Positions 15,870-30,725 of a DNA stretch of 64,000 nucleotides are shown here, in pieces (the stretch's first letter is position 1; every line of letters starts with the position of its first letter). The stretch is from Gammaproteobacteria bacterium (GTDB lineage: Bacteria > Pseudomonadota > Gammaproteobacteria > Steroidobacterales > Foliamicaceae). The stretch covers positions 1,588,239 to 1,652,238 of the forward strand of contig OY762064.1 of assembly GCA_963665145.1 (NCBI GenBank). The letters run 5' to 3'. Under the pieces are notes generated by a model. The model was not told where the DNA came from, did not search any database, and worked only from the letters and a program-made list of their open reading frames with translations. A program made the position numbers and the translations under genes.

Positions 15870-15873
15870 ACGC

Positions 15874-16576: not shown

Positions 16577-18019
16577 ATGAAACCGATTCGCCGCACCTGG
16601 AAGGTCACGTCCATTGCGGTCGTCACGCTGGCGCTCCTGGCGCCGGCGGCCATGCCGGCTGAACCCGGACCGTCGACTCTGGTCGATGCCCGAAACGACG
16701 AGGCCGTTGCCCTGGCCATGGATCTGTTCGAGTATGCCGAACTCGGCTATCTCGAGACCCGAAGCACCGAACGGCTCGCAGGCTATCTTGAGAGCAGCGG
16801 CTTCACCGTCGAGCGCGGTGTGGCCGGCATCCCCACCGCGTTCGTTGCCGATTGGGGGCACGGCGGCCCGGTGATCGGTATTCTTGCTGAATTCGATGCC
16901 TTGCCCGGACTGTCGCAGGCGGCGGTGCCGCATCGCGAGCCCGTCGCTTCCGATGAACCGGGACACGCCTGCGGTCACCACCTTTTCGGCAGCGCTTCGG
17001 CCACGGCGGCCACGGCAATCGCGGCCTGGCTTGCGAGCACGGGGACTTCCGGGACCGTGCGGGTCTATGGCACGCCGGCGGAAGAGGGCGGATCCGGCAA
17101 GGTGTATCTCACGCGGGCCGGACTGTTTGACGACGTGGACATCGTGCTGCACTGGCATCCGTCCGACCGCAACGTCGCCGGCCCGGAGAGCAGCAACGGC
17201 AACAAGTCCGGACGCTTCCGGTTTCACGGAATCGCAGCGCACGCCGCGTCATCGCCCGAACGGGGGCGTTCCGCGCTGGACGGCGTGGAGGCGATGAACT
17301 ACATGACCAACCTGATGCGCGAACACATGCCCTCCACGGCCCGGCTGCACTACGTGATCACCGACGGCGGCCAGGCGCCGAACATCGTTCCGGAGACCGC
17401 CGAGGTCTATTACTACGTTCGACATCCCCAGCCTGAAATGGTGGTCGAGTTGTTTGAGCGGGTCGTGGCCGCGGCCGAGGGCGCCGCTCTCGGGACCGGC
17501 ACCCGGATGGAATACGAGGTGATGCACGGCAACTTCCCGCTGTTGCGCAACGACGTCCTGGCCGAGGTGTTCCATGGCCACCTGGAACGCCTGGGTGGCG
17601 TCGAATACGACGAAGCGGAAATGGCATTCGCGACCACTCTGAGAGAGTCACTGTTTGGTGATCTTCGTCCGCTCGAGACCAGAAACGAGATCGAGCCCTT
17701 CGAGTTCCGCCAGAGAATGGGCTCCACGGACGTCGGCGACGTAAGCTGGATCGTGCCCACGGCGGGATTCGGCACGGCGACCTGGGTGCCCGGCACGCCG
17801 GCCCACAGTTGGCAGGCGGTCGCGGCCGGCGGCATGAGCATTGGCCACAAGGGCATGATGCTGGCGGCCAAGGTGCTCGCCGAGACCGCCCGCGACCTTT
17901 ACACGGATGCCGAACTCATCGCCAGGGCCAAAGCGGAATTCGAGGACCGGCGCGGTCCGGACTTTGTATACCGGCCCCTGCTCGGCAACCGCGAGCCGCC
18001 TCTCGACTACCGCAAGTAG
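16577..18019 (+). CDS. M20-family amidohydrolase (AbgB/hippurate-hydrolase-like), secreted
   Basis: ATG at 16577 (MKPIRRTWKVTSIAVVTLALLAPAAMPA is a signal peptide). Motifs include HACGHH and GTPAEEGGSGK. Confidence 0.8.
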   Translation: MKPIRRTWKVTSIAVVTLALLAPAAMPAEPGPSTLVDARNDEAVALAMDLFEYAELGYLETRSTERLAGYLESSGFTVERGVAGIPTAFVADWGHGGPVIGILAEFDALPGLSQAAVPHREPVASDEPGHACGHHLFGSASATAATAIAAWLASTGTSGTVRVYGTPAEEGGSGKVYLTRAGLFDDVDIVLHWHPSDRNVAGPESSNGNKSGRFRFHGIAAHAASSPERGRSALDGVEAMNYMTNLMREHMPSTARLHYVITDGGQAPNIVPETAEVYYYVRHPQPEMVVELFERVVAAAEGAALGTGTRMEYEVMHGNFPLLRNDVLAEVFHGHLERLGGVEYDEAEMAFATTLRESLFGDLRPLETRNEIEPFEFRQRMGSTDVGDVSWIVPTAGFGTATWVPGTPAHSWQAVAAGGMSIGHKGMMLAAKVLAETARDLYTDAELIARAKAEFEDRRGPDFVYRPLLGNREPPLDYRK

Positions 18020-18089
18020 ATTCCCAACGCACGGTGTTGCCTTTCGAGCGCAACCACATCGACCTCCAATTTCGGATGATCGCAGATTC

Positions 18090-18368
18090 TCACTCTTGCA
18101 CTCCGGAACCGGGGTCGCGTTCCAGACGGTCATGCGTTTCCGGCGGCTGGCCTCCTTTTCGTTTGAGCAGGCGCTGCGCGGCATCAATATCTGCGCTCGA
18201 GCCGTGCGTCGCAAAGAACTCGGCGGTCTTCATCGCTGAAATTTTCTCGGCCACGGCCGTATTCACGAATTGATTGATGCTGGTGCCTTCCTCCCTGCAC
18301 ATGTTGGCCACGGCTTTTTTCAAGGACCTCGGCAGCCGCAAGGGATATGTACTGATTTGTTTCTTCAT
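18090..18368 (-). CDS. ribbon-helix-helix (Arc/CopG/HicB-C-like) antitoxin
   Basis: Internal ATG at 18368 gives MKKQISTYPLRLPRSLKKAVANMCREEGTSINQFVNTAVAEKI, a classic RHH pattern. It overlaps the upstream PIN gene by 4 nt. Confidence 0.65.
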   Translation of the reverse strand: MKKQISTYPLRLPRSLKKAVANMCREEGTSINQFVNTAVAEKISAMKTAEFFATHGSSADIDAAQRLLKRKGGQPPETHDRLERDPGSGVQE

Positions 18369-18796
18369 ATCGAAATGCTCCTCAATGCCTCCTGGGGCGA
18401 CAACATTGCAACTCCGAAACGCTTGGGGACCTCCCCGAAATCCCGCCTGTTGAAAGTTACCAGGCCATGGGCATTGCCATTGATTGCCGCTTCCAGCACC
18501 ATCTCGTCGGCCGGATCGCGCAGCTGAGGACGCCAGAGAAACCGCGCCTCCACCGGTTCCGCGACACTGCACAGCGCTGAGATAACGGTCTCAATTTCCG
18601 CCTCGCTCAATCCTGAAACGATCCGCTGAGCCGGTTCCCGGCATACCGATTCGTATTCCAGCGCGAGAGCAACGGACAACAACAGCGTGAAGTCCCGCCG
18701 CAATGCTCGCTCAAGCAGCATTGCCGAGGCGCCTGCCGGACTGCGCAGACCTGCAACAATCACATTGGTATCCAGAAGCACACTTACAACTTGCAA
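18365..18796 (-). CDS. PIN-domain toxin (TA-system PIN family); start codon uncertain (TTG 18796 or GTG 18781)
   Basis: VLLDTNVIVAGL at the N-terminus, about 140 aa. It is coupled to an RHH gene located downstream rather than upstream. Confidence 0.75.
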   Translation of the reverse strand: MQVVSVLLDTNVIVAGLRSPAGASAMLLERALRRDFTLLLSVALALEYESVCREPAQRIVSGLSEAEIETVISALCSVAEPVEARFLWRPQLRDPADEMVLEAAINGNAHGLVTFNRRDFGEVPKRFGVAMLSPQEALRSISI

Positions 18797-19033
18797 CTCC
18801 CTGCCACCGATACTCTGACGTGCGCTCTACTCGTATAACCTATTGTAATAGTTCTTTTATTCCCTGTTTCCCCATTGCTCGCCCCCTTGCATAGACGCCA
18901 CAATTGCGCTCTAATACGCCCTGAATTCACCCCGGCCGCTTTCGAATCGCTTACGGTCATTTGGCGCTGCCGAACCCGCTCCCGGATCGAACGCGGCCCC
19001 CGACCCCCGGTTTTCGGCTCAACGAACCACGCC

Positions 19034-20206
19034 ATGCCCCAACGCCAGTACCGAGCCCTCACCAAGCGTATCGTGGACCGCCTTGCCGTCGACGGCAAGG
19101 ACGCGGTCTTCTGGGACCGGGAGCTGCCGGGCTACGGGGTCCGGGTCTATCCGTCAGGCGTCAAAGTATACGTGGTGCAAACCCGGTGCAACGGCAAGTC
19201 CAGGCGCGTGACGGTCGGCCGCCATGGCGAGATCGCGCCCGACCAGGCCCGCAAGGAGGCCGTGAAGATCATCGCGCGCATCAAGGCCGGATTGTCTCCG
19301 GTCGAGGCCGAACCGGCACCCCCGCCGACGGTCGCCGACCTCGCCGGGCGTTACCGGCGCGAGTACGTCGCAATGCACTGCAAGCCGAACACGGTGAAGC
19401 ACTACGGCCTGATGCTGGCCAAGCACATCGTGCCGGGCCTTGGGGAGTTCGAGGTGGCGGAGGTGGAGCGCAAGGACATCCTCAGGTTCCAGTTCGAGCT
19501 GAGCGACATGCCCACGGTCGCGAACCGGTGCGTGGACATCATGGTCAAGATGTTCTACTTGGCCGAACTCTGGGAGATGCGCCCGCCCGGCCGCAACCCC
19601 TGCAAGTCGGTGCGGCGCTACAAAGTGGCGCGGCACAAGGAGCGGTTCCTGACGCCGAAGGAACTGGCGCGGCTCGGCCGGGTGCTTGAGACCGCGCCCG
19701 CGGAGCGTCTGGCTTCCCGGCACTCTGCAGCGGCCATCCGGCTTTTGATCCTGACCGGGTGCCGGAGGAACGAGATCATGGGGCTGGCCTGGGACGATCT
19801 CGACTTCGAGGCCGGCGAGATGCGGCTGAGGGATAGCAAGACCGGCGGACGGGTGGTCCCGATGCCGCCGCCCGCTGCGGAGGTGCTGGCCGACCTGCCG
19901 GGGGTCGAGGACAATCCGTGGGTGTTTCCGGGGCGCAGGAAGGGCGCCCATCAGGTCAACATCAACGACTCCTGGGACCGCGTGCGCAAGCGCGCCCGCC
20001 TTGACGGGGTGCGGCTTCACGATCTGCGCCACACGTTCGCCTCCCGCGCGCTCGCGATCGGCGAGGGTTTGCCAATGATCGGCGCATTGCTCGGGCACCG
20101 CAAGATCGAGACGACCGCGCGCTACGCGCATCTGGCCCGCGAATCCATCCAGGCGTCCACCGCCAAGGTCGCCGACAGCATCGGTGCGGACATCCTGGCG
20201 GACTGA
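19034..20206 (+). CDS. tyrosine integrase 1 (P4-type with N-terminal arm-binding/DUF4102-like domain)
   Basis: ATG 19034. The N-terminus reads DAVFWDRELPGYGVRVYPSGVKVYVVQTR. The catalytic set is intact (LTGCRRNE, HDLRHTFAS, LGHRKIETTARYAHL). Confidence 0.9.
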   Translation: MPQRQYRALTKRIVDRLAVDGKDAVFWDRELPGYGVRVYPSGVKVYVVQTRCNGKSRRVTVGRHGEIAPDQARKEAVKIIARIKAGLSPVEAEPAPPPTVADLAGRYRREYVAMHCKPNTVKHYGLMLAKHIVPGLGEFEVAEVERKDILRFQFELSDMPTVANRCVDIMVKMFYLAELWEMRPPGRNPCKSVRRYKVARHKERFLTPKELARLGRVLETAPAERLASRHSAAAIRLLILTGCRRNEIMGLAWDDLDFEAGEMRLRDSKTGGRVVPMPPPAAEVLADLPGVEDNPWVFPGRRKGAHQVNINDSWDRVRKRARLDGVRLHDLRHTFASRALAIGEGLPMIGALLGHRKIETTARYAHLARESIQASTAKVADSIGADILAD

Positions 20207-20209
20207 CTC

Positions 20210-21415
20210 ATGGCGAAGCTCGCACGCAGGTCCATTTCCAGACGCACGGTGGAGTCGCTGCCGGTCGGCGAGCGCGAGGCGGTCTACTGGGATTCGGCGC
20301 TCTCGGGGTTCGGAGTGAGGGTTTACCCCTCAGGTTCGAAGGTCTACCTGGTTCAGACCCGCGCGGGCGGCACATCCCGGCGGCTGGCCGTGGGACGGCA
20401 CGGACTGATTACGGCGGAGCAGGCGCGGCGCAAGGCGGCCCAGCTCATCGCGGACATCAAGGCCGGCAACCAGCCCGACCTGCACAACGGAGCCGGGCGG
20501 GTGGACGCCGGGCCCAGGCTGACCGAGGTTGCGGAGCGGTTCATGACCGAGCATGTCGCGGTGCGCTGCAAACCCACCACGGCCCGGCATTGCCGAAACA
20601 TCCTCGACCGTCACCTGCTGCCGGCGCTGGGCGGCGTTCGCCTTGGAGCCATCGGGCGCGAGCGCGTGGCGTCGCTGCACTACAGCCTGCACAAGACGCC
20701 CGTCATGGCGAACAAGGTGGTGGACCTGCTCTCGCGGCTGTTCAACATGGCCGAGCTTTGGGGGATCGCGCCCGAGGGCGGCAATCCCTGCCGCTTCGTG
20801 CGCAAGTACAAGGAGCGCCCGCGGGAGCGCTTCCTCACCGACGAGGAGTTCCAGCGCCTCGGCCGTGTGCTGGGCGAAGTCGAGGCCGAGGGCAAGGTGC
20901 ATTCCAGTGCGGTCGCGGCGTTACGGCTGCTGATGCTGACCGGGTGCCGCAAGAGCGAGATCCTGACGCTGCGCTGGGAGGACGTGGATCTGGAGGCCGG
21001 GGAGCTTCGGCTGCCGGATGCCAAGACGGGCGCGCGGTCGGTGGCGATATCCCCGTCGGCGCGCCGCGTGCTCGCGGGGTTGCGGCGCCTGCCGGACAAT
21101 CCCTGGGTCATTACCGGCACCAGGCCCGGCCGGCATTTCCGCAATCTCAACAGCACCTGGCTCGTAATCCGGGACCGCGCGAAGCTGAACGACGTGCGCA
21201 TTCACGATCTGAGGCACAGCTTCGCGTCGCGCGCCCTGGCGCTGGGTGAGAGCCTGCCGATGATCGGCAAGCTGCTCGGACACCGAAAAGTGCAGACCAC
21301 GGCGCGTTACGCGCACCTGGCGCGGGACTCGGTGAAGGCGTCGGCGGCGCGCGTGGCCGAGAGCCTGCGGGCGGATCTCGCCGGCCGGACCGATACCGCG
21401 CCTTCCGGCCCATAA
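20210..21415 (+). CDS. tyrosine integrase 2 (paralogue of integrase 1, 3 nt downstream)
   Basis: 401 aa with the same architecture: AVYWDSALSGFGVRVYPSGSKVYLVQTR, LTGCRKSE, HDLRHSFAS, LGHRKVQTTARYAHL. Confidence 0.9.
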   Translation: MAKLARRSISRRTVESLPVGEREAVYWDSALSGFGVRVYPSGSKVYLVQTRAGGTSRRLAVGRHGLITAEQARRKAAQLIADIKAGNQPDLHNGAGRVDAGPRLTEVAERFMTEHVAVRCKPTTARHCRNILDRHLLPALGGVRLGAIGRERVASLHYSLHKTPVMANKVVDLLSRLFNMAELWGIAPEGGNPCRFVRKYKERPRERFLTDEEFQRLGRVLGEVEAEGKVHSSAVAALRLLMLTGCRKSEILTLRWEDVDLEAGELRLPDAKTGARSVAISPSARRVLAGLRRLPDNPWVITGTRPGRHFRNLNSTWLVIRDRAKLNDVRIHDLRHSFASRALALGESLPMIGKLLGHRKVQTTARYAHLARDSVKASAARVAESLRADLAGRTDTAPSGP

Positions 21416-21685
21416 GCGCCGCCGCCGAACGGCGATTCCAACGCGGTCCCCTGGCCACCGCAAGCCCACACGCATTACGCTTGACGTAAGCCTCCTGCGC
21501 CGCTGACGAGCGGCGCTTCGCCGGCCCGCAATCCCCGCACGCCGAGGCGGCGCTCATGGGCGATTTTCGCCGCCTGCCGGCCTTGCGCCACGGAGAGCAG
21601 AGTCTGGCCGGGAGCCGGGCGGCGTGCGGCGCTCCGGGAGAGGGGCGCAGCCGCCGTTCCCTTTCACCGGACCCGGAGGAGCACC

Positions 21686-22012
21686 ATGCAGGCGGCACTC
21701 GCACCGCGCGGCGACGCGCGCACCTATCTCACTCACTTTGTCGGCGACGGCCTGGAAGACGACCGGTACGTCGTGGAGACGTACCGATCCCTCGCCAATG
21801 GCGAGATTATTCCCGTCCATGCCGACGGTTCCAGGCCCAGGGGCCGACGCAAGGCGCTGGGCCGGATCCTGCCCTTGAAGGCCGTGGAGAAGCTGCGCCC
21901 GGCGCGCGACGAGATCATCATCGCGACCGGGGTGACGTTGCGCAATTGTGGGCTACAAAGGTGGGGTTGGCGCGCCCTGTCAATTTTCGTCGAGCGGCGC
22001 CAGAAGGGCTGA
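21686..22012 (+). CDS. conserved hypothetical protein (108 aa), module gene 1
   Basis: It has a paralogue at 47062..47388 of identical length, with the shared blocks MQAxLAPRGDARTxLTHFVG and LKAVEKLRPARDEIIIATG. GGAG lies upstream. Confidence 0.55.
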   Translation: MQAALAPRGDARTYLTHFVGDGLEDDRYVVETYRSLANGEIIPVHADGSRPRGRRKALGRILPLKAVEKLRPARDEIIIATGVTLRNCGLQRWGWRALSIFVERRQKG

Positions 22013-22096
22013 CGCACGCGCCCTGGGACGTCCTGCCGTCGCAGGGACGGCCGTACATCTCCCCGACCGATCGGTACTGCAATTGGAGGCGCCATC

Positions 22097-23107
22097 ATGC
22101 CCATCAGCGATCCCGATATCCGCAAGGCGAGCGACCGCGAGCGGTTCCGGAGGCGGATCGAACAGCGCAAGGCGCTGGGATTGTGTCCCCGCTGTGGAGT
22201 CCGGCCTCCGGCTTCCGGGCTGAGCCTGTGCGATCCCTGTTCCGAAAAGCGCAGGGCCTCGGAGCGGGCCCGCGACGCCCGGAGGCGGGCCGCCGGCATC
22301 CAGCGCCCCCGCAACGTCGCCGCCGAACGGGCGAGAGACCGGCAGCGGACCGCCGAGCGGATCGCGCGGGGGGTCTGCACGAAGTGCGGCGCCTGCCGGC
22401 CCGAGCCCGGCCGCCGGCTGTGCGAGGCGTGTTCAGAAAAGCGCCGCGAGTACGACCGCACCCGATACGCCGAAGCTCGCGACCGGGGGGAACTCTACGG
22501 CGGCAAGAACCCTGAGGCCAAACGCAAGGCCGGGCGGGCCGCCAGCGCCCGGCGCCGTCGTAACCGGATCGCCGCCGGGCGCTGCACGCGCTGCGGACAG
22601 GGGTCCGCGCCGGAGGGGAGCACAGTCTGCGTATCTTGTCTCGAAGCCCGCCGGGTCGCGGAGCGGGAACGATACCGCGCCCGCCGCGCCAAGGGCCTTT
22701 GCGTGATCTGCGGGCAGACGGCCTTTGCGGGCGAGGCCCGCTGCGGGGTCTGCGCTACCGTCGAGCGCGAGCGGCGCGACAGGAGCACCAAGAACGCCCG
22801 CAGCCGGCAGCGGTATTGGGAACGGCGGGCCGCCCACCGCTGCACGGACTGCAACCAGCCGAGCTTCGGGGCATCGAGGTGTCCAGAGTGCGCGAAGCGC
22901 TCGTACGAGCGCTCCGATCACGTGCGCGGGATGCCGGTGTATCCGCCGAGCTTCGCCGTGATCCTCGTCGAGACCGAGGAGTGTCTGGCGACTTTCGACG
23001 ACGAGATGGACGCGGCCGCGTTCATCGCGTTCGAGAACCTGTCCAGGCACGAGGTTGAGGTGGTCCGCGACGCCCACCCGCTTGCGACCCTCGTCGGCTG
23101 GGAATGA
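22097..23107 (+). CDS. five-fold tandem zinc-ribbon (CxxC-N-CxxC) repeat protein, module gene 2
   Basis: 336 aa. The five units are CPRCG..CDPC, CTKCG..CEAC, CTRCG..CVSC, CVICG..CGVC and CTDCN..CPEC, each followed by an Arg-rich helix. A paralogue lies at 47474..48490. Confidence 0.6.
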   Translation: MPISDPDIRKASDRERFRRRIEQRKALGLCPRCGVRPPASGLSLCDPCSEKRRASERARDARRRAAGIQRPRNVAAERARDRQRTAERIARGVCTKCGACRPEPGRRLCEACSEKRREYDRTRYAEARDRGELYGGKNPEAKRKAGRAASARRRRNRIAAGRCTRCGQGSAPEGSTVCVSCLEARRVAERERYRARRAKGLCVICGQTAFAGEARCGVCATVERERRDRSTKNARSRQRYWERRAAHRCTDCNQPSFGASRCPECAKRSYERSDHVRGMPVYPPSFAVILVETEECLATFDDEMDAAAFIAFENLSRHEVEVVRDAHPLATLVGWE

Positions 23108-23236
23108 CGCGGCCGGCCCGGCACAGTCCGCGCCGCCGTGCGCGGTTTAAGACGTCTGGCCGTCCCGCCGCCCGCAGCGGTCGCCTTGCTCCACGCGGAT
23201 ACGGATGGCCGACCAGCCGGGTGCAGGCGCAGGAAC

Positions 23237-23437
23237 ATGCCGATGATGTTCGATACTCTGCCGGCCGAGGTCGATTTTGTGTGGGTCGCCAAGTCCCTGC
23301 CCGGGGGCGTACTGCATCGCATCGCCACCGCTGCCGAGGGCCTGGACTGTTCCATCCGCGCCGCGATGATCGCGGTGATCCTCAGCAATGCGCTATGCCT
23401 CGGCGACCGCCTGGGCTTCAGGCTCGGCCAATGCTGA
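23237..23437 (+). CDS. possible small protein (66 aa) present only in module copy 1
   Basis: Internal ATG of ORF 23138..23437. Third-position GC bias looks coding. It lies in a roughly 490-bp segment absent from copy 2. No family was recognised. Confidence 0.3.
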   Translation: MPMMFDTLPAEVDFVWVAKSLPGGVLHRIATAAEGLDCSIRAAMIAVILSNALCLGDRLGFRLGQC

Positions 23438-23640
23438 GACGCCGGGGTGGTGCTGGCCGCCCGGGGGCGGCACCAGCCTGGGCGGTGACCGTTGCCGCGA
23501 ACGGAATCGCCGGCGGCCGGCTGACCCGTAGCGTCTCCTACCTGCCGCTGGCGTTGCCGCCGCATTTCCTTCTCCGCGCGGCGCGGGCAATCCCGCCCTC
23601 GGTCCCACGCCGCCACTGTCCCCGGAGGGCGAGTTTCGCG

Positions 23641-23679
23641 CGTGCCGGGCGAACGCCCGGAAGAGGAGAGGGAGAAGGG
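23641..23679 (+). promoter_or_regulatory. conserved leader element A (GC hairpin CCGGGCGAACGCCCGG + polypurine AGAGGAGAGGGAGAAGGG)
   Basis: The same element recurs at 48537-48575 and in part at 49465-49495. Each copy ends 37-39 nt before the ATG of a small ORF. Confidence 0.35.
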
Positions 23680-23718
23680 CTCCCCCCGTCCCGGGCGCGA
23701 TCACCAAAGGAGACTTGC

Positions 23719-23895
23719 ATGTACGCACCCGACACCGACTACGACCCCATCCCCGCAGACACCGGGCAATTGCTGAGCGACCTCGGCATTGACATCAACG
23801 CCGTGCGCGAGACCCTCGCCGACGACGTGGCGCGGTACTGTCCCGACCGCGAGGTCGCCGAGACCGGGAGTTGGAGGGAAGCCAGAGAAGGATGA
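23719..23895 (+). CDS. conserved small protein (58 aa), module gene 3
   Basis: AAAGGAGA lies before the ATG at 23719. The paralogue at 48613..48789 shares PDTDYDPIPAxTGQLLxDLGIDxNAVRETLADD...SWREAREG. Confidence 0.5.
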   Translation: MYAPDTDYDPIPADTGQLLSDLGIDINAVRETLADDVARYCPDREVAETGSWREAREG

Positions 23896-23975
23896 ACGGA
23901 CGAGGGGCCGGAGAGAGACTCCGGTTCCCGGCCGTTCGCATACCCATCACATCAATTAGCAGAAGGAGAATCAAC

Positions 23976-24437
23976 ATGAGCTTTGGACTCAACCGCGCAG
24001 AAGTCATCGGCCGCCTCGGCGCCGACGTAACCGTCAATCACCTGACCTCGGGGGGCCGTGTCGCAAATCTCAGCATCGCCACCGACGAGAGCTACCTCGA
24101 TCGCACTTCCGGCGAGCGCGTCGACCGCACCGAGTGGCACCGTGCCGTGACGTTCCAACCTGGGCTGGTGGACATGCTGGTCAAGAACGCCAGGAAGGGC
24201 CGGCTGGTCTATGTCGCGGGCAAGATGCAGACCCGTCGCTGGCGCAAGGAGGGAGAAGACTCCGACCGGTTCTCGACCGAGATCCTGCTGGTCCCCGGTT
24301 CCCGGATCCAGTTCCTGGATCGGCCGGGTACCGTCAACGGCAACGGCGCGCAGGCCGCGCCCGAGGCGGCGGCTACAGATTCGGCCGGGACGGACGGCGG
24401 CGACGCCGATCCGAACATGAACCAGATCCCGTTTTGA
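23976..24437 (+). CDS. ssb: single-stranded DNA-binding protein
   Basis: GAAGGAGA lies before the ATG at 23976. OB-fold signature: NRAEVIGRLGADV..., TEWHRAVTF, QTRRWRKEGEDSDRFSTEI. It has a Gly/Ala-rich tail ending in the acidic tip ..DPNMNQIPF. Confidence 0.85.
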   Translation: MSFGLNRAEVIGRLGADVTVNHLTSGGRVANLSIATDESYLDRTSGERVDRTEWHRAVTFQPGLVDMLVKNARKGRLVYVAGKMQTRRWRKEGEDSDRFSTEILLVPGSRIQFLDRPGTVNGNGAQAAPEAAATDSAGTDGGDADPNMNQIPF

Positions 24438-24463
24438 GGCTGCGCCTCTCCCGTCCCCGGAAA

Positions 24464-24496
24464 GGGCTGGTGTTTCGTCACCAGCCCTTTTCTTTT
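24464..24496 (+). terminator. Rho-independent terminator after ssb copy 1
   Basis: GGGCTGGTG-tttcgt-CACCAGCCC is a perfect 9-bp stem followed by TTTTCTTTT. Confidence 0.75.
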
Positions 24497-24791
24497 GTAG
24501 CGGAACAGGAGTCCTTCCACTCCGGAACTGCAAGTGCCCCTCGCCAGCGCGGTGCCAGCGGAACCGGCCAGGGGAGGCTGTGCCCAGCCCAAACAATAGC
24601 TCCTCCCGTCTCATGCCCATCGTCCCACACGGGCTCACTGCGCCAACCCCTTACGGGGTCCTCCACTTCGTTGCGGCCGCTTCGCGGTGACTCCGTTGCG
24701 CGCGCGTGAACCAATAGGCATAAGCCGGGATGCGCTTCCGGCGATAAGGGCCAATCGGCTTAACTCTCAACTTCATCAAGGAGACACTCTG

Positions 24792-25718
24792 ATGTTCGAT
24801 ATCGATTCCATGCACACCCAACAAGCACAATCCCCCACCGCAGTGATCTGCGAGAACGCGGCGCTCTACGGAGTCACGCCCGAACGCGATGAGTTCGACC
24901 CCAGGGACATCTGGGACCGCGACGAGGCCGTAACGGCGATCGGCGAAGCGTTCCGCATCCTCGCAGAGAACGTCACACCGGACGGCGTCCAGCTCGCCGA
25001 CGAACGAGAACACCTGCTCTGGGGGTTCGTGAACACCCTCAACGCCCAGGTGAGAAGACTCGACCGCCGCATCGATAAACTCACGCCCAAAATGCGCGAC
25101 CTGCAGAACGCGCAGGACGGCTCCGAAGTCAAGGCCCGCGAACTCGAACTCACCACCGACCGCGCACGCCACCTCGGCGACCGCCGCGACGCGTTCGAGA
25201 CCCTGCGGGATACAGTGGCCGAACAGTACCGCAACGCGACCGGCAGCACCTGGCGTCCGCGGCGCGGCAGCCACACCAGCCAGACCCGCAAGCTCACCTC
25301 GGCGGCGATCGACGCCCGCGACTTCCAGCGCGCACGCAAGGACCGCGAGATGCAGGCGCACCTGCCCGAGGGCACCCTGATCGCCGTCACCGGCGGCAAG
25401 CACCTCAAGGACTGCAACGCCGTCGCCCGCAGCCTGGAGAAGGTCCGCGCCAAGTACAACGACATGGTGCTGGTGCATGGCGGCGGCCCCGGCGTCGAGA
25501 AGATCGCTGCTCAGTGGGCCGAACGCAACGAAGTGCACCAGATCGTGTGCAAGCCGGACTGGAACCGTCACGGACGGGCCGCACCGTTCCGCCGCAACGA
25601 CGAGCTGCTGAATCTCCTGCCGAAGGGCGTCATTGCTTTCCCCGGCAGTGGGATTACCGACAACCTCATCGACAAGGCCGAGTCATTGGGCATCCCGGTG
25701 ATGCGGGCCGCTGCGTAG
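24792..25718 (+). CDS. fusion protein: N-terminal helical/coiled-coil domain + C-terminal DUF2493 (SLOG/YspA-like) domain, module gene 5
   Basis: ATG 24792. The C-terminal 110 aa (LVHGGGPGVEKIAAQWAERNEVHQIVCKPDWNRHGRAAPFRRNDELL..VIAFPGSGITDNLIDKA) match my memory of DUF2493 proteins of ICEs. A paralogue lies at 50049..50966. Confidence 0.7.
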   Translation: MFDIDSMHTQQAQSPTAVICENAALYGVTPERDEFDPRDIWDRDEAVTAIGEAFRILAENVTPDGVQLADEREHLLWGFVNTLNAQVRRLDRRIDKLTPKMRDLQNAQDGSEVKARELELTTDRARHLGDRRDAFETLRDTVAEQYRNATGSTWRPRRGSHTSQTRKLTSAAIDARDFQRARKDREMQAHLPEGTLIAVTGGKHLKDCNAVARSLEKVRAKYNDMVLVHGGGPGVEKIAAQWAERNEVHQIVCKPDWNRHGRAAPFRRNDELLNLLPKGVIAFPGSGITDNLIDKAESLGIPVMRAAA

Positions 25719-26513
25719 CAGCCAGCGCGGCAACGGGTCGCGTCGTTCCACCGGCGCGGCCCGTTCCGTTCCTTCGACACGAACCGCTACGGTGGCGCGA
25801 TCAACGCCGCGCCGACGACCTGCAATGCCCGCTGCGCGTGGCCCTGCACTTGCGCCATCAGTTCGTGCCGTGCCCGCCGTCACCGCGTCGGCCTCGCTCG
25901 TCCTCGCCGGCTGCGCCGGCATCGGCCATCGCCTCGGCGCATTGCCGATGCGCTTCGTGCGGATGCCGGCGCCGGCTTCGCCGTGCACCGGATCGCGCAC
26001 GTTCCTCCGCACAGGTGCGGACGGCAGTGACGGTCCCGGTGCGCACCGGCCTGTGCACCTCGCCATGCACTCGTGTCCGGCCAAGTGCACACGCCATCGC
26101 TGCCTGGCCGTGCACCGCCTTCGGCGTCACGGCCAGCGAGACTGAGACGGCCAGTGCGGCCGGCCCGCCGTTCTCGCCAGCCCGCAACGCGGAATCCGCC
26201 GCAGATATCCTGAAAGTGTCTGGTAATACGCGGTGAGCGGGACGTACTACACCGTACTACGCCCCGGTTCTCCAGAGAACCGCCGATGCTCCCAGAGCAT
26301 CATTGCCGCCTTGCCCGCGCTGGAGACGCCACGTCCGCTTCCTGGATTGAAACCCGGATCCGAGCGCCGGTTCGCGGCCCGAAGCCCAAATAGGCTCCGC
26401 CCTATCCCGACTGCTCAAGCGCCGCTTGGGCTAAACCGTTGAGTCACAACGGCTTCCCATTTCCATCGGTTGAACTTCTCCCTTGAATCCCCTCTCGACG
26501 GCGGAGCCGGATC

Positions 26514-26531
26514 ACCGTCACACCCCACGCA
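26514..26531 (+). repeat. 18-bp exact direct repeat ACCGTCACACCCCACGCA (left copy)
   Basis: The identical 18-mer occurs at 51680-51697. The flanks diverge on both sides apart from a short CGGAG 4-5 nt upstream. Confidence 0.9.
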
Positions 26532-26721
26532 CCGATGGTGCAGTGAGCGAGACCCCACGGGCCTGCGCTCTTCGGAAGATTTCCGTTATATGTCAGCAGG
26601 ATAGACCGAGTTCGGCCTATCGCCGCGATCCGCCGCGCGGGGCGCGTTGCCTGTTCAAAGCCGCCGTTTTGTTCCCTTGAGACGAACGGCGCCCGAGGAA
26701 ACAGACAACGGAGACACGCTC

Positions 26722-27861
26722 ATGCACATTCAAGCCACTATCAACGAGCGGACGCTTCGCCGTACATTCCGGGAGAAAAAACCCGGACGGTACGGCCTGA
26801 TCGTCATCGACCGGGACCTGCCCGCCTTCGGTTTCACGGTCGCAAAGAACGGAACAAAGACCTTCTTCGTCCGAGCTCCACGCCCGGTCGGCGCACCGAA
26901 AACCATCCTCGGCACGGCCGACGACATAACCGCCGCCGAGGCCCGCGAGATGGCCGTCGCCACCATCGCGCCCGCCAAGGCCGAGCGCGAGACCGGCCCG
27001 CGGTTCGCCGACTTCGTCGACGAGTTCATGCGCCGCCAGGCGCGGCTCTGGAAGCCGTCCACCCGCCAGTGCAACCGCCACCTGCTCGACCGCTACCTCC
27101 TGCCGTTCTTCGGCGCGATGCCTGTCGCAAAGATCGGCCGCGCCGATGTGCGCCGCTGGTTCGATTCCCTGAGCGCCACGCCCGCCAGCGCCAACCGGGC
27201 CCTGCCGGTGCTGTCGGTGATGATGCGCCAGGCGGAACTGTGGGATTTCCGGCCCCAGGGCTCCAATCCCTGCCGCAACATGCACCGCTACAAGACCGCG
27301 CCGCGCGAGCGGTTCCTTTCGGTCGAGGAACTCAAGCGCCTCGGGTTCGTGCTCGACCATGCCGATGACAGTCAGGCAGCCGCCGCGATCCGGCTGCTGC
27401 TGTTCACCGGCGCGCGGTTGTCGGAAATCACGGCGCTGCGGTGGGACTGGATACGCGGCACTCGCGCGGTGCTCCCGGACTCCAAGACCGGGCCGAAAGC
27501 GATCCAGCTTCCGCCGCCCGCCAGGGCGGTGCTGAACGCTCTGCCGCGTGACAGTGAATATGTGTTCCCGAATCCGGCGGGCGACGCTCCCATGAAGAAC
27601 CTCGGGTACCGCTGGTTGAAGCTGCGCGATCTCACCGGACTGGACGATGTGCGCATCCACGACTGCCGGCATACGTTCGCCTCCCACGCCGTCATGAGCG
27701 GCCTCGACCTCTATACCGTCGGAAGGCTGCTGGGTCACGCCGACATCGCCTCGACCGAGCGTTACGCCCATCTGGCCGACGAGCACATCCGCGCCGCGGC
27801 GGGGCGCATCTCCGGCATCGTCCACGGGGCCATGACCGGCAGCGCCAAGGAGGGAAAATGA
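26722..27861 (+). CDS. tyrosine integrase 3
   Basis: ATG 26722 after AACGGAGA. Motifs: LFTGARLSE, HDCRHTFASH, LGHADIASTERYAHL. Confidence 0.9.
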   Translation: MHIQATINERTLRRTFREKKPGRYGLIVIDRDLPAFGFTVAKNGTKTFFVRAPRPVGAPKTILGTADDITAAEAREMAVATIAPAKAERETGPRFADFVDEFMRRQARLWKPSTRQCNRHLLDRYLLPFFGAMPVAKIGRADVRRWFDSLSATPASANRALPVLSVMMRQAELWDFRPQGSNPCRNMHRYKTAPRERFLSVEELKRLGFVLDHADDSQAAAAIRLLLFTGARLSEITALRWDWIRGTRAVLPDSKTGPKAIQLPPPARAVLNALPRDSEYVFPNPAGDAPMKNLGYRWLKLRDLTGLDDVRIHDCRHTFASHAVMSGLDLYTVGRLLGHADIASTERYAHLADEHIRAAAGRISGIVHGAMTGSAKEGK

Positions 27862-29297
27862 TGAGCGGCGGCAAGCACCGCTTCCGGTTGACCGTGAAGG
27901 CCATCGCTGCCGCGAAGCCGGGGGCGATGGAACGCACCCTGTGGGACACCCAGCTGGCGCACTTCGGGGTTCGGGTGCAACCCTCCGGGGTCAAGTCCTA
28001 CATCATCCAGACCCGCGTTAACGGGCGCATGCGCAAGATCACGCTCGGGCGGTTCCCTGAACTGTCGCTGGACGCGGCACGGCGCGAGGGCGCGGCCGTG
28101 CTCGCCCGCCTGTGGAGCGGCGAGGACGTGAAGCCGGCGCGGAAGAACAGGGCGCCGCTGTTCCGGGATTTCGCCAAGCGCTACCGTGAACGGCGGCGGC
28201 ACCGTTGGAAGCCGTCCTCGCTCGAAACCCACGACATCTACATGCGCAACCGGCTGATGCCGGCCTTTGGCCGGATGCGGCTCGACGCCATCGACCATGC
28301 GCGCGTTTCCGCCTGGTTCGATGCCGCCAGTGTGGACAAGCCCGGCGCGGCCAACCGCGCCTTCGAAATCCTGCGCGCGATGCTGAAGACGGCCCGCCAG
28401 TGGGGAGACATCGGAGAACACGTCCCCGACGCCTGCGCCAATATCGTCAAAAACCCGAGAAGGCACGTCGCGCGTTTTCTGAACCGCGGGGAACTCGAAC
28501 GGCTCGGTGCCGTCCTGGACGCGCACCAGGCCGAACAGCCGTGGCGGGTCGCCGCGGTCCGGCTGCTGACGCTCACCGGCGCGCGCCTGTCGGAGATCCT
28601 CAACCTCAAGTGGGAGGAGGTCGGCGAGTTGGATGCCGACGGCGCCAGCGCCCGTCTCGAAGACTCCAAGACCGGGCCGCGCACGGTCTGGCTCGGGCCG
28701 GAGGCGGCCAACGTGCTCGCCGCCCTGCCGCGGGCGGAAGAGGCCGCGCGGGTGTTCCCGGGAAATCTCACGCCGGGCCGGTTCTACAGGTTCTGGGTCG
28801 GCATCCGGGAGGAAGCCGGGCTGGCCGGGCTGCGGATCCACGACTGCCGCCACACCTGGGCCTCGCAGGGCGTCATGAACGGCGTCGGGCTGACCACCGT
28901 CGGGCGGCTGCTCGGACACCGCCAGCGCGAAACCACGGCAATCTATGCGCACCTCGACGATGCCGCGCTTTACGACGCCGCCGCGCAGGTCGCGAACGTC
29001 ATGGCCCGTGTAATGGATTTCAAGGAGACGGCACCTGAATTGCCTCACGATGAAGAACAAAACGGTGAGAAACGCGATCAATCACTCCTTTTGAATTCAC
29101 GGGAGAGGCCAGCCGATTCTCCGAATCTCTCTAAGACGAAGAGCGAACTCGGAACGTCCTGCAGGAAGGGCGAAGACATCACCGAAGAGCTTCTCCGACA
29201 ACGGAAGTTCGAGCAGTTGGTGCGACCAACCGGAGCCGAACCCCCTGCAACAGGCGCGCCCGGCAACCAACGTCCCGCGCCGCTCGATTGGCTGTGA
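27858..29297 (+). CDS. tyrosine integrase 4 (overlaps integrase 3 by 4 nt) with a roughly 90-aa low-complexity C-terminal extension
   Basis: 479 aa. Motifs: LWDTQLAHFGVRVQPSGVKSYIIQTR, LTGARLSE, HDCRHTWAS, LGHRQRETTAIYAHL. The tail after about residue 390 has no integrase similarity. Confidence 0.85.
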   Translation: MMSGGKHRFRLTVKAIAAAKPGAMERTLWDTQLAHFGVRVQPSGVKSYIIQTRVNGRMRKITLGRFPELSLDAARREGAAVLARLWSGEDVKPARKNRAPLFRDFAKRYRERRRHRWKPSSLETHDIYMRNRLMPAFGRMRLDAIDHARVSAWFDAASVDKPGAANRAFEILRAMLKTARQWGDIGEHVPDACANIVKNPRRHVARFLNRGELERLGAVLDAHQAEQPWRVAAVRLLTLTGARLSEILNLKWEEVGELDADGASARLEDSKTGPRTVWLGPEAANVLAALPRAEEAARVFPGNLTPGRFYRFWVGIREEAGLAGLRIHDCRHTWASQGVMNGVGLTTVGRLLGHRQRETTAIYAHLDDAALYDAAAQVANVMARVMDFKETAPELPHDEEQNGEKRDQSLLLNSRERPADSPNLSKTKSELGTSCRKGEDITEELLRQRKFEQLVRPTGAEPPATGAPGNQRPAPLDWL

Positions 29298-29420: not shown

Positions 29421-30608
29421 TCAGGTCGATCGCATCCGCTCGGCCCTCGACAGTTTCTGCAACACGCCTTTGATCCGACCCACCGCTTCATCGATGTCGT
29501 CATCGCTTGTGGCGAAGCCGAGACTAAAGCGGATGGAGGATTCAGCCTCGTCACAACTCAGGCCGATTGCTCTCAGGACATGCGAAGGTTCCGGTATGCC
29601 CGACGTGCAGGCCGAACCGGTCGAGGCTGCGACATGCGGCTGCAAAGCGACCAGTATGTCGTGGGCCGCGAATCCCACGAACCCGATATTCGCGTTGCCG
29701 GGATGTCGGGATTGCCCCTCCGGGCCATTCATAGTGATCGGCCAAGCAAGTCGCCTCAGACCGGTAACGAACCTGTCTCTCTTGCGGCGCAACTTCTTAC
29801 GCCGATTTTCGGCGGTCGCGTCCGTAAACATGTCTGCGGCTACGCCCATGCCAACGCAAAGCGGGATGGGCACCGTGCCCGAGCGCAAACCGTTCTGCTG
29901 GCCGCCGCCGTAGATCAGCGGTTCGATCCGGTCTTGAAGTTCCCGTGCAATATAAGCGGCTCCTATTCCCTTCGGCCCGTACATCTTGTGTGCTGAAATA
30001 CTGAGAATATCGACGTATTCGGCGAATGAACTCAGCTCAATTGCGACCGGTGCTTGTGCCGCGTCGCAGTGAAATGCGGCACCGTAGTTCCTTGCGACCT
30101 TTGATAGACGCTTGATATCCTCAATCGTTCCGATTTCGTTATTCACGGCCATGATCGATACAAGAAGAACATCGTCATCCAACGATTCTTCAAGCGTTGA
30201 CGCTTCGATAAAACCCTTCGAGTCAACTGGCAGGAGTTCGACTTTCAAGCCTAGCCGTTCTTCAATCGCGCGCCCCGCGGCCAGGACGCATTTATGCTCG
30301 GCGGCGCTGACCAGCACACGCCGGCGCATGCCGCCGCGCGCGCGGCGCGCGAGCCCCAGCAAGGCGAGGTTGTTCGCTTCGGTCGCCCCCGAAGTGAAGA
30401 TGATTTCATCGGCGTCCGCACCGATCAAGCGTGCGACTCGGGCGGCGGCCTCGTCCACGGCGCGCAATGTTTCCCATCCGAGGGCGTGATCGACGGAATG
30501 CGGATTGCCGAACGATTCAGTGAAATACGGCGTCATTTCGGCAAGAACACGCGAATCTAACGGCGTGGTCGCCTGATGGTCGAGATATATGGTGTCTCTA
30601 ATTCTCAT
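29421..30608 (-). CDS. sspA: cysteine desulfurase (IscS/NifS/DndA class), SspA-type
   Basis: 395 aa. The PLP-lysine region is LSISAHKMYGPKGIGA and the active-site Cys loop is GSACTSG. It is divergently placed next to sspB-like genes. Confidence 0.8.
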   Translation of the reverse strand: MRIRDTIYLDHQATTPLDSRVLAEMTPYFTESFGNPHSVDHALGWETLRAVDEAAARVARLIGADADEIIFTSGATEANNLALLGLARRARGGMRRRVLVSAAEHKCVLAAGRAIEERLGLKVELLPVDSKGFIEASTLEESLDDDVLLVSIMAVNNEIGTIEDIKRLSKVARNYGAAFHCDAAQAPVAIELSSFAEYVDILSISAHKMYGPKGIGAAYIARELQDRIEPLIYGGGQQNGLRSGTVPIPLCVGMGVAADMFTDATAENRRKKLRRKRDRFVTGLRRLAWPITMNGPEGQSRHPGNANIGFVGFAAHDILVALQPHVAASTGSACTSGIPEPSHVLRAIGLSCDEAESSIRFSLGFATSDDDIDEAVGRIKGVLQKLSRAERMRST

Positions 30609-30695
30609 TTAGCCTCAATAGCATAGACGCTGAAATCCCTGAGCTTACCCTCCTGCCGGCATCGGCGTGTTTCTGGGGCACGCCTCCAGGTCCAA

Positions 30696-30725
30696 TTGAC
30701 CATAGCACGCCATTCGGGCTACAGT
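30696..30725 (+). promoter_or_regulatory. possible sigma70-type promoter for sspBCD (TTGACC-18 nt-TACAGT)
   Basis: These hexamers were read directly in the 152-bp divergent sspA/sspB intergenic region. The spacer is one nt longer than optimal. Confidence 0.25.

Follow-up and report, generated by a model that had tools for sequence, protein, structure and literature searches.

The 64,000-nucleotide stretch of DNA analyzed here (the window) is probably best explained as two nested or accreted mobile elements, each driven by a co-inherited, catalytically competent pair of tyrosine integrases, for which a mixed tetramer appears the likeliest mechanism. An earlier note had described four tyrosine integrases in two co-oriented pairs, and all four open reading frames (ORFs) proved to be real, intact, and on the + strand. 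The spacing given was also correct, with a 3-nt gap between Int1 and Int2 and a 4-nt overlap between Int3 and Int4, and no terminator-like sites were found on the + strand between the partners of a pair.

19034-20206, + strand: Int1, first-position (A-type) arm-type tyrosine integrase, 390 aa
20210-21415, + strand: Int2, second-position (B-type) arm-type tyrosine integrase, 401 aa
26722-27861, + strand: Int3, C-type, gene 1 of the second pair, divergent arm domain, 379 aa
27858-29297, + strand: Int4, D-type, gene 2 of the second pair, 479 aa

The start of Int1 was placed at ATG 19034, as homologs of 389 to 390 aa match 100% of this query; the ORF itself opens at TTG 18875. The Int3 ORF opens at TTG 26647, and its homologs are 380 to 382 aa, while Int4 ends in a variable C-terminal tail of approximately 100 aa. 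Using Pfam, all four proteins matched Phage_integrase (PF00589; E values of 1e-18 to 1e-25), placing them in the tyrosine recombinase superfamily. Arm-DNA-bind_3 (PF13356) passed its cutoff in Int1, Int2, and Int4, which have the arm-type (P4-like, DUF4102) architecture of an arm domain followed by a core-binding domain. The window copy of Int3 gave no significant arm-domain match in Pfam, and about half of its close homologs have a precomputed PF13356 match. The SAM-like core-binding domain PF14659 matched all four integrases and exceeded its cutoff in Int3 and Int4 only. The description of one N-terminal motif common to the four holds only in part for Int3, the N terminus of which is FGFTVAKNGTKTFFVRAP. 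The catalytic contexts are intact, as had been reported: R, E, K, H-x-x-R-H, H, and Y align in Int1 to Int4, and none of the four clades shows any variation in R-E-K-H-R-H-H-Y (57, 54, 16, and 13 homologs). Neither member of either pair has lost a catalytic residue, and both partners of each pair are predicted to be functional and catalytically competent.

Pairing recurs in every related locus that could be scored. An Int2-type gene follows the full-length Int1-type gene in 55/55 related loci, where a full Int2-type gene lies within 150 nt in 40, is disrupted in 13, is displaced by an insertion in 2, and is missing in none; an Int4-type gene follows the Int3-type gene in 11/11. Integrases sharing 70 to 85% identity were identified in Alpha- and Gammaproteobacteria, Binatia, Bryobacterales (Acidobacteriota), and Thermodesulfobacteriota, nearly all relatives being metagenome-assembled genomes, in which repeated elements can be misassembled. 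Within the window, Int1 and Int2 share 50.6% identity and all other combinations share 36 to 39% (36% for Int3 and Int4), in agreement with the description of 1 and 2 as close and of 3 and 4 as more diverged. In a neighbor-joining tree on p-distances, built without bootstrap and not settling the deep position of the Int3 and Int4 clades, the first-position clade of the Int1/2 family was sister to the second-position clade. A-type and B-type proteins are 52% identical, each clade contains three matching subfamilies, and identity within subfamilies is 62 to 86%. Int3-like and Int4-like proteins formed their own deep clades, approximately 35 to 37% identical to everything else; the orthology suggested between Int1 and Int3 and between Int2 and Int4 was not borne out, and the two pair families appear to be separate lineages that arose separately. 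The distance matrices of the partners are correlated (r = 0.95 for 43 pairs of the Int1/2 family and r = 0.97 for 11 pairs of the Int3/4 family), and the partners are under similar purifying selection, with dN/dS values of 0.14 to 0.18 for Int1 and Int2 and 0.15 to 0.34 for Int3 and Int4. The pairs are therefore old, an early duplication having been followed by co-divergence across at least three subfamilies, and are not recent private duplications. Neither of the refuting conditions given in the earlier note, private duplication or loss of catalytic residues, was borne out. Positions fixed in both the A and B clades yet differing between them number only three (H115R, V133L, and K172R), all in the core-binding domain; for readers of different half-sites this is little divergence, a point against a heteromer.

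The left end of the Int1/Int2 element was located in the 5′ end of a PIN toxin gene.

18090-18374, − strand: weak HicB-like antitoxin candidate, small ORF downstream of the PIN gene (Pfam HicB, E = 6.6e-4, below cutoff)
18365-18796, − strand: PIN_3-family toxin gene, target of the Int1/Int2 element (PF13470, E = 3e-20)
18762-18775, + strand: junction (attL) of the Int1/Int2 element; its sequence, ACATTGGTATCCAG, is that of the L-D-T-N-V codons in reverse complement
18776-19033, + strand: element-side leader, from the junction to Int1 (blastn to related loci)

The small ORF at 18090-18374 is part of the target toxin-antitoxin operon and lies outside the element. Homology to an empty ortholog (locus L021) ends at 18775, and the first seven or so codons of the PIN gene (18776-18796, with a TTG start) come from the element. 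In L021 the orthologous PIN gene is uninterrupted, with its own N terminus and operator, and the toxin-antitoxin pair is intact; the orthologous pair in L009 is occupied by the element. Same-genome copies that are approximately 99% identical lose homology exactly at ACRTTSGTRTC, and this junction motif, rare and almost absent elsewhere, lies 246 to 382 nt upstream of intA in 31 loci as well as in the window. Intact PIN ORFs of 130 to 143 aa adjoin the junction in at least 29 loci, and 9/9 of those tested belong to PF01850 or PF13470, above cutoff. The leader, which includes a block (18883-18958) conserved in many loci by blastn, is presumed to be the promoter and arm-site region. Taken together, these comparisons indicate that diverse PIN toxin genes receive Int1/2 elements in their 5′ end, at the codons for the catalytic D-T-N-V motif. 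Each element supplies a start codon and 3 to 7 N-terminal codons of its own, which keeps the PIN frame open. As the D-T-N-V motif is common to many unrelated PIN genes, each genome offers many landing sites, and several near-identical element copies per genome were found. The PIN junction is not shown by the deeper subfamilies A2/B2 and A3/B3. Neither the window nor any 10-kb flank yielded the right end of the Int1/Int2 element, so only one side has a documented excision-competent end.

Downstream of Int1/Int2 lies a backbone that is partly duplicated in the window by the Int3/Int4 element (E2).

21585-25765, + strand: backbone module A, with ORFs of 108, 336, and 99 aa, SSB, DUF2493/YAcAr, and a terminal conserved hairpin (Pfam)
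23871-24437, + strand: SSB of module A (Pfam)
24687-25718, + strand: DUF2493/YAcAr protein of module A (Pfam)
25766-26513, + strand: spacer from module A to the Int3/4 attachment core, belonging to the backbone that received E2
46970-51016, + strand: module A′, second backbone copy, at the right end of E2 (self-blast; Pfam SSB and YAcAr)
51977-52390, + strand: NikA-like or Arc-like small DNA-binding protein of the backbone (Pfam NikA-like, E = 1.3e-6; PHROG Arc-like)

The boundaries of module A recur in L118, L010, L033, and L038 and in module A′, which shares 68 to 85% nucleotide identity with module A by self-blast. The true start of the DUF2493/YAcAr gene is probably near 24790. The spacer is contiguous and 84% identical in L118, an empty-site locus, and is also present in L085 and L086. 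Three GTATGC-N-GCATAC palindromes (approximately 51790-51905) precede the NikA-like gene, which in L118 lies directly after module A. As this gene and SSB are the only transfer-related genes of the window, its element copies look like mobilizable or decayed elements. Elsewhere, the pair in L081 is followed by the F-type conjugation genes TraL, TraE, TraK, TraB, and TraC, an S24 repressor, and an HTH_17 protein, and conjugation genes lie within 10 kb of pairs in only a few loci.

E2 is 25.2 kb in length (26514-51697), is delimited by an 18-nt direct repeat at 26514 and 51680, and adjoins the DUF2493 gene of the backbone.

26514-26531, + strand: attL of E2, left 18-nt direct repeat, ACCGTCACACCCCACGCA
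29421-41353: E2 cargo 1 (padloc SspA to SspD, E = 1e-108 to 0; Pfam)
29421-30608, − strand: SspA (padloc, 1e-128)
30761-31723: SspB (padloc, 2e-108)
31606-35115: SspC (padloc, E = 0)
35112-35951: SspD (padloc, 5e-136)
36521-37792: DndB-like protein
37882-39540: PbeA-like helicase
39449-41353: GHKL ATPase
44031-46589, − strand: E2 cargo 2, type II methyltransferase (44031-45623) and XamI-family restriction endonuclease (45624-46589)
51680-51697, + strand: attR of E2, right 18-nt direct repeat, within the near-palindrome CACACCCCACGCAG-TTCCT-CTGCGGTGTGTG

At the empty site in L118, sequence corresponding to 24543-26444 of the window is joined directly to that of 51683-52377 via a single core, and the right flank of E2 is identical to the flank of this site. 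The left repeat overlaps a 13-bp palindrome, GCACCGATGGTGC (26529-26541), which is retained in 17/17 loci with compensatory changes. The core TCACACCCCAC-GCACCnnnGGTGC lies approximately 200 nt upstream of Int3 and precedes Int3/4 in every locus, homology beginning at the core in L087 and L095. The Int3/4 family recombines at this core, giving the 25.2-kb insertion in the window. Because E2 carries its own backbone module and core copy at its right end, it regenerates a target for more insertions, and tandem accretion and nested insertions occur in this mobile-element array. Its first cargo clusters an SspA cysteine desulfurase, SspB (DUF4007), an SspC ATPase, and a PAPS-reductase-like SspD, which together identify an SspABCD phosphorothioate defense system. 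A partner restriction module, SspE or SspFGH, was not clearly identified, as padloc gave only DndB-like, PbeA-like, and MzaB-like matches. E2 shows phosphorothioate and restriction defense genes moving as a discrete 25-kb, site-regenerating unit and is one concrete route to the building of defense islands.

XerC and XerD, two catalytic paralogs that form one heterotetramer on an asymmetric core and each carry out one pair of strand exchanges, are the best mechanistic analogy for the pairs in the window, and Xer proteins are the solved structures closest to Int1 in sequence. They differ in that they lack an N-terminal arm-binding domain, perform host housekeeping, usually have unlinked genes, and work with FtsK at dif. 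Identity with XerC/XerD was rejected, as TIGR02224 and TIGR02225 scored 47 to 75 bits against cutoffs of approximately 330 and the arm domain is present. Single P4-like (Arm-DNA-bind_3/DUF4102) integrases share the architecture, the catalytic motifs, and the position at the element edge reading inward. Classical P4-like integrases work singly, most often at the 3′ end of a tRNA or tmRNA gene, whereas those described here come in pairs, with the 5′ end of a protein-coding gene family as target. No tRNA or tmRNA was detected in the 64-kb window (ARAGORN, 0 genes; Rfam, 0 hits), the junctions falling instead within the 5′ end of the PIN gene and in an intergenic palindromic core. In sequenced plasmids, the nearest relatives (at most 45% identity) are single integrases. 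Integrative conjugative elements (ICEs) carry an integrase, a complete type IV secretion system, a relaxase, and a coupling protein inside their att sites. Recombinase-in-trio (RIT) elements share a tightly packed, co-oriented set of tyrosine recombinase genes conserved in Alpha- and Betaproteobacteria; the three genes of an RIT keep a fixed order (A-B-C) with little cargo, if any, compared with two genes and large cargo here. An RIT (ritA-ritB-ritC) was rejected, as each unit has two recombinase genes and the next ORF encodes a 108-aa protein or the opposite-strand SspA. No evidence was found for a 2.4- to 2.9-kb pair moving alone; an apparent 2,859-bp unit common to L022 and L026 stops where a transposon has inserted. 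The likening of the pairs to RIT or multipartite ICE systems stands as an analogy only, because the features that define those systems were not found together here. The repair of a split target gene by element sequence, a principle described previously (PMC4383910), is common to P4-like islands and ICEs and the window element.

Tn554 also moves site specifically using adjacent tyrosine recombinase genes, both of which are needed for movement (PMC3414803; PMC10214605), and it and its actinobacterial relatives share this adjacency with the window pairs. Elements of this type encode one ordinary recombinase, one long recombinase (>600 aa), and the small TnpC, whereas both members of the window pairs are of ordinary size and arm type. 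A Tn554-like identity was rejected on the lengths of 390, 401, 379, and 479 aa and the lack of a conserved small third gene with the pairs, Int2 homology ending by 21429 in all loci. SE (intA-tfp-intB-srap) and GInt (ginABCD) elements likewise depend for recombination on a left-end operon of several recombinase-family genes. Their core comprises four genes, one of which, between or after the integrases, encodes a recombinase-like protein lacking RHRY; they have short terminal inverted repeats and are not mobilizable; the window pairs comprise two catalytic genes with none intervening and have direct-repeat att sites, with conjugation or mobilization genes in some members. This identity was rejected because the 3-nt gap and the 4-nt overlap leave no intervening gene and both partners are catalytic. 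No published description of paired integrases of this type was found. The lambda and P4 site-specific integrases are textbook single-protein systems, mined as genome-engineering tools, and a large, widespread family with two always co-inherited integrases would add a new architecture, the arm-type counterpart of XerC/XerD.

We propose that two integrative elements share the window, one of them nested inside the other or accreted to it, and that each would be driven by its own co-transcribed arm-type (P4-like) integrase pair. Both partners would come together at the attachment sites in a single mixed tetramer, like XerC/XerD, with each integrase type binding one half of an asymmetric core and catalyzing one pair of strand exchanges. 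Co-inheritance and the precedents of XerC/XerD, Tn554, SE, and GInt make it likely that the partners work as one heteromeric recombinase. A strict A-then-B order, tight spacing, and 0/55 solo full-length A genes fit such an obligate partnership better than a division of labor, in which separate homotetramers would act on different sites or in different directions, one integrating and the other excising, for example, or one serving att sites and the other resolving multimers or arrays. FimB and FimE divide switching directions, and with full catalytic sets each partner here could act by itself; arrays and nested insertions of the elements occur, very few positions are clade specific between A and B, and near-identical copies per genome suggest that the excised form replicates, giving multimers in need of resolution. 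However, Int1/2 pairs showed no second type of conserved site nearby, and Tn554, SE, and GInt need all of their recombinases for one reaction (PMC10214605); we consider a division of labor unlikely.

Less probable by a clear step is that one partner is the recombinase and the other an accessory, namely, an architectural arm-binding or directionality factor that keeps its catalytic residues by descent and does not cleave in vivo. The degenerate arm-binding domain of Int3 would suit such a role, and SE and GInt systems include a noncatalytic recombinase-derived protein, but those proteins have lost the RHRY motif, whereas the catalytic residues here are invariant over deep divergence in four clades and dN/dS is equal between partners, which is unexpected if catalysis is dispensable. 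Accidental adjacency, by recent local duplication or by two separate elements landing side by side, might be expected of a mobile-element array with tandem accretion, yet it is refuted by the comparative data and retains next to no credibility: pairing is seen in >60 loci of several phyla, the co-phylogeny gives r values of at least 0.95, Int1 and Int2 are only 51% and Int3 and Int4 only 36% identical, and the clades are position specific. As the earlier note had argued, the recurrent arrangement, the co-divergence, and the catalytic residues and similar purifying selection in both members show that the pairs are not accidental.

Beyond the heteromeric recombinase favored above, a more far-reaching proposal, which we put forward only tentatively, is that the pairs are obligate heteromeric arm-type integrases of a kind undescribed for the lambda/P4-like group. 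The Int1/2 type would read D-T-N-V DNA, making any PIN gene in any phylum a landing pad, and the second type would build defense-island arrays by re-creating its target. Recognition of PIN-motif DNA would explain both the many copies per genome and the occurrence of 70 to 85% identical integrases across phyla. The target is unusual, being the conserved catalytic-motif coding DNA of a multicopy toxin family instead of a tRNA gene, and this choice offers a simple explanation for the multicopy, cross-phylum spread. A toxin gene also has its promoter and start codon put under the control of a mobile element, and toxin expression could be coupled to the presence of the element; in the window, the promoter of the whole PIN/antitoxin operon has been replaced by the element.

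The window carries four tyrosine recombinase genes in two co-oriented pairs, an arrangement described in the earlier note and on which the ORFs and the Pfam matches agree:

19034-20206, + strand: Int1, tyrosine recombinase ORF
20210-21415, + strand: Int2, tyrosine recombinase ORF starting 3 nt after Int1
26722-27861, + strand: Int3, tyrosine recombinase ORF
27858-29297, + strand: Int4, tyrosine recombinase ORF with a 4-nt overlap with Int3

All four proteins matched Pfam Phage_integrase, and an alignment located the catalytic Arg, Glu, Lys, His-x-x-Arg-His, His, and Tyr in each, in line with the intact catalytic contexts reported earlier. The architecture said to be shared by all four was recovered for Int1, Int2, and Int4, which scored above the cut-off for Arm-DNA-bind_3, but not for Int3, whose arm domain is divergent, though its N terminus is alignable. 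Int1 and Int2 share 50.6% identity and every other combination 36 to 39%; thus, the greater divergence of Int3 and Int4 also stood, and the Int3 arm domain was the only part of the earlier observation that did not. All four integrases fell short of the curated cut-off of every NCBIfam recombinase family, with scores against the NCBIfam Xer and integron integrase models far under threshold. Their domain content places all four in the tyrosine recombinase superfamily and, less clearly for Int3, among the arm-type (P4-like) integrases. The 64-kb window gave no match to tRNA, tmRNA, or any other Rfam family, and a promoter/terminator scan returned no promoter-like sites and no excess of terminator-like sites over chance. 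The C-terminal tail of Int4 (28990-29297; approximately 100 amino acids) is of low complexity and not conserved in homologues, which range from 332 to 483 amino acids in total length.

A scan with Int1, using one genome per species, identified 79 loci, all in metagenome-assembled genomes (MAGs) and, by record titles, from Alpha- and Gammaproteobacteria, Binatia, Bryobacterales, Thermodesulfobacteriota, and others, with several Int1-type loci often present in one genome. In nearly all 79, the Int1-like gene had an Int2-like gene after it in the same orientation. Among the 55 loci with a full-length Int1-type gene, to which a strict pairing score was applied, the Int2-type gene was full length and within 150 nt in 40, adjacent but disrupted in 13, displaced by an insertion in 2, and absent in none. 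For Int3-type loci, drawn from three genomic contexts and a metagenome scan, an Int4-type gene lay directly 3' of the Int3-type gene in all 11 with enough sequence, so the paired arrangement sought in other genomes was found for both pairs. These comparative data come almost entirely from MAGs, with flanks of up to 10 kb.

To place the four proteins, 152 integrases from related loci and the window were aligned and a neighbour-joining tree was built, which carries no bootstrap or other support values and does not settle the deepest branching. First-position (Int1-type, or A-type) genes formed one clade of 57 sequences with three subfamilies, and second-position (Int2-type, or B-type) genes formed its sister clade of 54 sequences with three matching subfamilies, indicating that one old duplication, followed by divergence as a pair, gave rise to Int1/Int2. 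A clade of solitary integrases fell outside both. A-type and B-type proteins are approximately 52% identical, compared with 62 to 86% inside a subfamily. Int3-like (n = 16) and Int4-like (n = 13) proteins formed two more deep clades, approximately 35 to 37% identical to each other and to all others; the tree therefore gave no sign of the orthology between Int1 and Int3 and between Int2 and Int4 that had been envisaged. In two distant pairs (L099 and L100), the first gene grouped with Int3 and the second with Int4. Partner distances were strongly correlated for A/B (Pearson r of 0.95 across 43 pairs; 0.94 in the closest subfamily alone) and for Int3/Int4 (r of 0.97 across 11 pairs). Against close relatives, dN/dS was 0.14 to 0.18 for Int1 and Int2 and 0.15 to 0.34 for Int3 and Int4. 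From the position-specific clades and this co-divergence, both pairs are old and not recent private duplications.

The left end of the Int1/Int2 element was located from same-genome copies of approximately 99% identity, in which homology breaks sharply 382 nt upstream of intA, the Int1-type gene. The breakpoint reads ACRTTSGTRTC, then GAAAAGACAACTC, and its opposite strand translates as ..L-F-D-T-N-V, the catalytic motif at the N terminus of PIN-domain nucleases. Of the 79 loci, at least 29 have an intact ORF of 130 to 143 amino acids running leftward from the breakpoint, and all nine of those tested were PIN (PF01850) or PIN_3 (PF13470) proteins above cut-off. The PIN bodies are diverse, and each element lineage has its own version of the few codons ahead of the Asp. 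Thirty-one loci and the window have the junction motif where it is expected, and elsewhere in those loci it is almost absent. The target region of the window comprises the following:

18365-18796, minus strand: target PIN_3 gene
18090-18374: HicB-like antitoxin candidate (weak match), after the PIN_3 gene

At one related locus (L021), the orthologous toxin-antitoxin pair is uninterrupted, and homology to the window ends at 18775. The PIN gene there has its own N terminus (MRFVLDTNV) behind a palindromic operator, unlike those of the window and L009, in which the N termini and upstream sequence are element derived. Judged from the sequences, L021 and the window represent the empty and occupied forms of the left junction. 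In one lineage the ACRTTSGTRTC bases vary with the target while the sequence rightward is constant, which places the crossover at or just beside the Asp codon. Candidate half-sites of this core are ACGTTGGTGTC and the element-side GACAACTCA; the element side weakly matches the target side in inverted orientation (GTTGGTGTC ... GACAAC). A core with such asymmetry would suit a two-protein recombinase. In two Alphaproteobacteria MAGs (L014 to L018, L022, and L026), at least four Int1/Int2 copies of approximately 99% identity reside in different PIN genes of one genome, and integrases 70 to 85% identical were found in MAGs assigned to several phyla. These near-identical copies and cross-phylum integrases imply recent spread and some step that increases copy number.

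Rightward of the Int1/Int2 pair, Int2 homology is over by 21429 in every locus, and homology of the backbone that follows, termed module A (21585-25765), starts at 21576-21599 in four independent loci, no more than about 200 nt past the pair in the window and L010. Module A contains, in order, a 108-amino-acid ORF, a 336-amino-acid ORF, a small ORF, SSB, and a DUF2493/YAcAr protein, of which only the last two were recognized in Pfam, NCBIfam, and PHROGs. The DUF2493/YAcAr ORF (24687-25718) is listed as 343 amino acids, and 120 homologues are almost all 305 to 309 amino acids; its true start probably lies about 35 codons downstream. At L081, genes for an S24-family repressor, an HTH_17 protein, and the F-type transfer proteins TraL, TraE, TraK, TraB, and TraC come after the pair; thus, at least some Int1/Int2 elements are probably conjugative. 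Only a few loci had transfer genes within 10 kb. No convincing right end was detected by exact and degenerate motif searches, short-word blast, or local alignment of the attL region to candidate ends, nor at 55.6 to 56.5 kb or at the module A end in L003 and L005. The window right of 52.9 kb is crowded with insertion-sequence fragments. The remnants at 52958-58693 comprise DUF772/DDE, a split IS110-family gene, and a truncated Mutator-family transposase, with a KAS III-like gene among them and a GH3-family gene (58906-60423) beyond them. The backbone element probably lost its right part to this run. Left-flank synteny with the Ca. Foliamicus locus L082 (MacB, HlyD, and AhpC) was considered and dropped, as no nucleotide similarity was present.

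The Int3/Int4 pair lies in a second element, termed E2. Approximately 200 nt upstream of Int3, all Int3/Int4 loci carry a core consisting of TCACACCCCAC, a palindrome (5 bp, 3 nt, 5 bp), and AGAGAGCGAGG, the outer sequences being candidate half-sites. The 13-bp palindrome (26529-26541) is perfect in all 17 loci compared (the window and L082 to L097), with compensatory changes at three of the five pairs, and may serve as a symmetric binding site for a protein or form a hairpin in single-stranded DNA. In L087 and L095, which have no module A upstream, homology to the window starts exactly at the core. The 18-mer ACCGTCACACCCCACGCA occurs at 26514-26531 and 51680-51697; outside homologous genes, the window has just one other direct repeat of at least 18 nt. 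In a Candidatus Foliamicus genome (L118), module A and the spacer, 84% identical to window positions 24543-26444, lead through a single core into sequence matching 51683-52377, including the NikA-like gene; the right flank of this core is identical to that of the window's second repeat. As L118 joins both flanks via one core, 26514-51697 is a discrete 25.2-kb insertion, with the following contents:

26722-29297, inside 26514-51697: Int3 and Int4
within 29421-41353: SspA, SspB, SspC, and SspD, a complete phosphorothioation cluster (padloc E 1e-108 to 0)
within 29421-41353: DndB-like, PbeA-like helicase, and GHKL-ATPase genes
44031-46589: type II methyltransferase and XamI-family endonuclease
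46970-51016: module A', the second module A copy, followed by a spacer and core of its own

With module A' and a core at its right end, E2 re-creates the kind of site that it used. The order of module A, core, Int3/Int4, and variable defence cargo also occurs in L082, L083, L084, L085, L090, and L094. Cargo directly after Int4 differs in related loci and is again defence related (type I restriction-modification, MmeI-like or EcoRI methylase, GmrSD, and Schlafen/AlbA). Nearly all Int3/Int4 loci have a conserved inverted repeat, GCCGTTTTGTTCCC ... GGGACGAACGGC, immediately 5' of the Int3 ribosome-binding site (26640-26720 in the window); it may be a regulatory structure or operator. Three GTATGC-N-GCATAC palindromes (51790-51905) upstream of the NikA-like/Arc-like gene (51977-52390) look like backbone operators or an origin-of-transfer region.

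Each pair is therefore two genes always inherited together, with purifying selection on both and active sites intact, and each pair family is tied to its own junction sequence; for one of them, a complete insertion with direct repeats and a matching empty site was found. We consider it reasonably probable that the partners co-act, probably as heteromers, both proteins acting together within one recombination complex. This is inferred because no solo genes occur, gene order is fixed, spacing is tight, the partners co-diverge, and precedents exist. XerC and XerD form a heterotetramer. In Tn554, SE, and GInt elements, all recombinase genes are needed for one reaction (PMC3414803, PMC10214605). 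Counting against joint action, just three positions fixed in both clades differ between A-type and B-type proteins, all in the core-binding domain.

Alternatively, each partner might have a role of its own, for example one in integration and the other in excision, or one in multimer resolution, a reading we consider possible but doubtful. That one partner is a non-cleaving accessory appears improbable. The catalytic residues do not vary in any of the four clades, one or two partial sequences excepted, and the check for catalytic loss raised by the earlier note found them kept by both members of both pairs. Adjacency by accident, set beside an Int2-type partner missing from none of the scored loci, is very hard to credit. 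Joint action remains our preferred reading.

The pairs are not Xer, RIT, Tn554-like, SE, or GInt systems, as a defining feature of each was tested for and found lacking. The bipartite module (BIM) of Cupriavidus was likewise rejected as an equivalent, as it consists of one recombinase and an SMC-like protein and not of two recombinases. In a plasmid collection, identity to the closest relatives does not exceed 45%, and the two inspected stand alone, unlike the pairs of the window. A general survey of integrative and conjugative elements (ICEs) goes no further than saying that some encode at least two integrases, the significance of which it gives as unknown. Full-text literature searches found no description of tandem or paired arm-type integrases or of PIN/vapC genes as an integration target, although absence there is no proof. 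On these grounds, the two-integrase module is judged undescribed and its target unusual, while the chemistry and element logic are ordinary.

In the A2/B2 subfamily, a deeper branch of Int1/Int2-type pairs (L049 to L063), the PIN junction motif is lacking, and a third integrase, oppositely oriented, often lies approximately 0.6 to 2 kb upstream; in L049 and L054 of this subfamily, the two integrase genes are the sole common sequence. Such sharing, together with the 2,859 bp that alone are common to L022 and L026, hinted at a self-contained, RIT-like "duo" element of 2.4 to 2.9 kb, which may exist in the A2/B2 subfamily but was rejected for L022, where the common stretch stops at the end of a transposon of 7.15 kb with 65-nt terminal inverted repeats. 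This segment (L022 positions 12470-19618) has perfect repeats and carries a Mu-like transposase, a ThsB-TIR gene, and, 0.7 kb past an Int1/Int2 pair, an Int3/Int4-like pair (41 to 46% identity), showing that an integrase pair can itself be transposon cargo.
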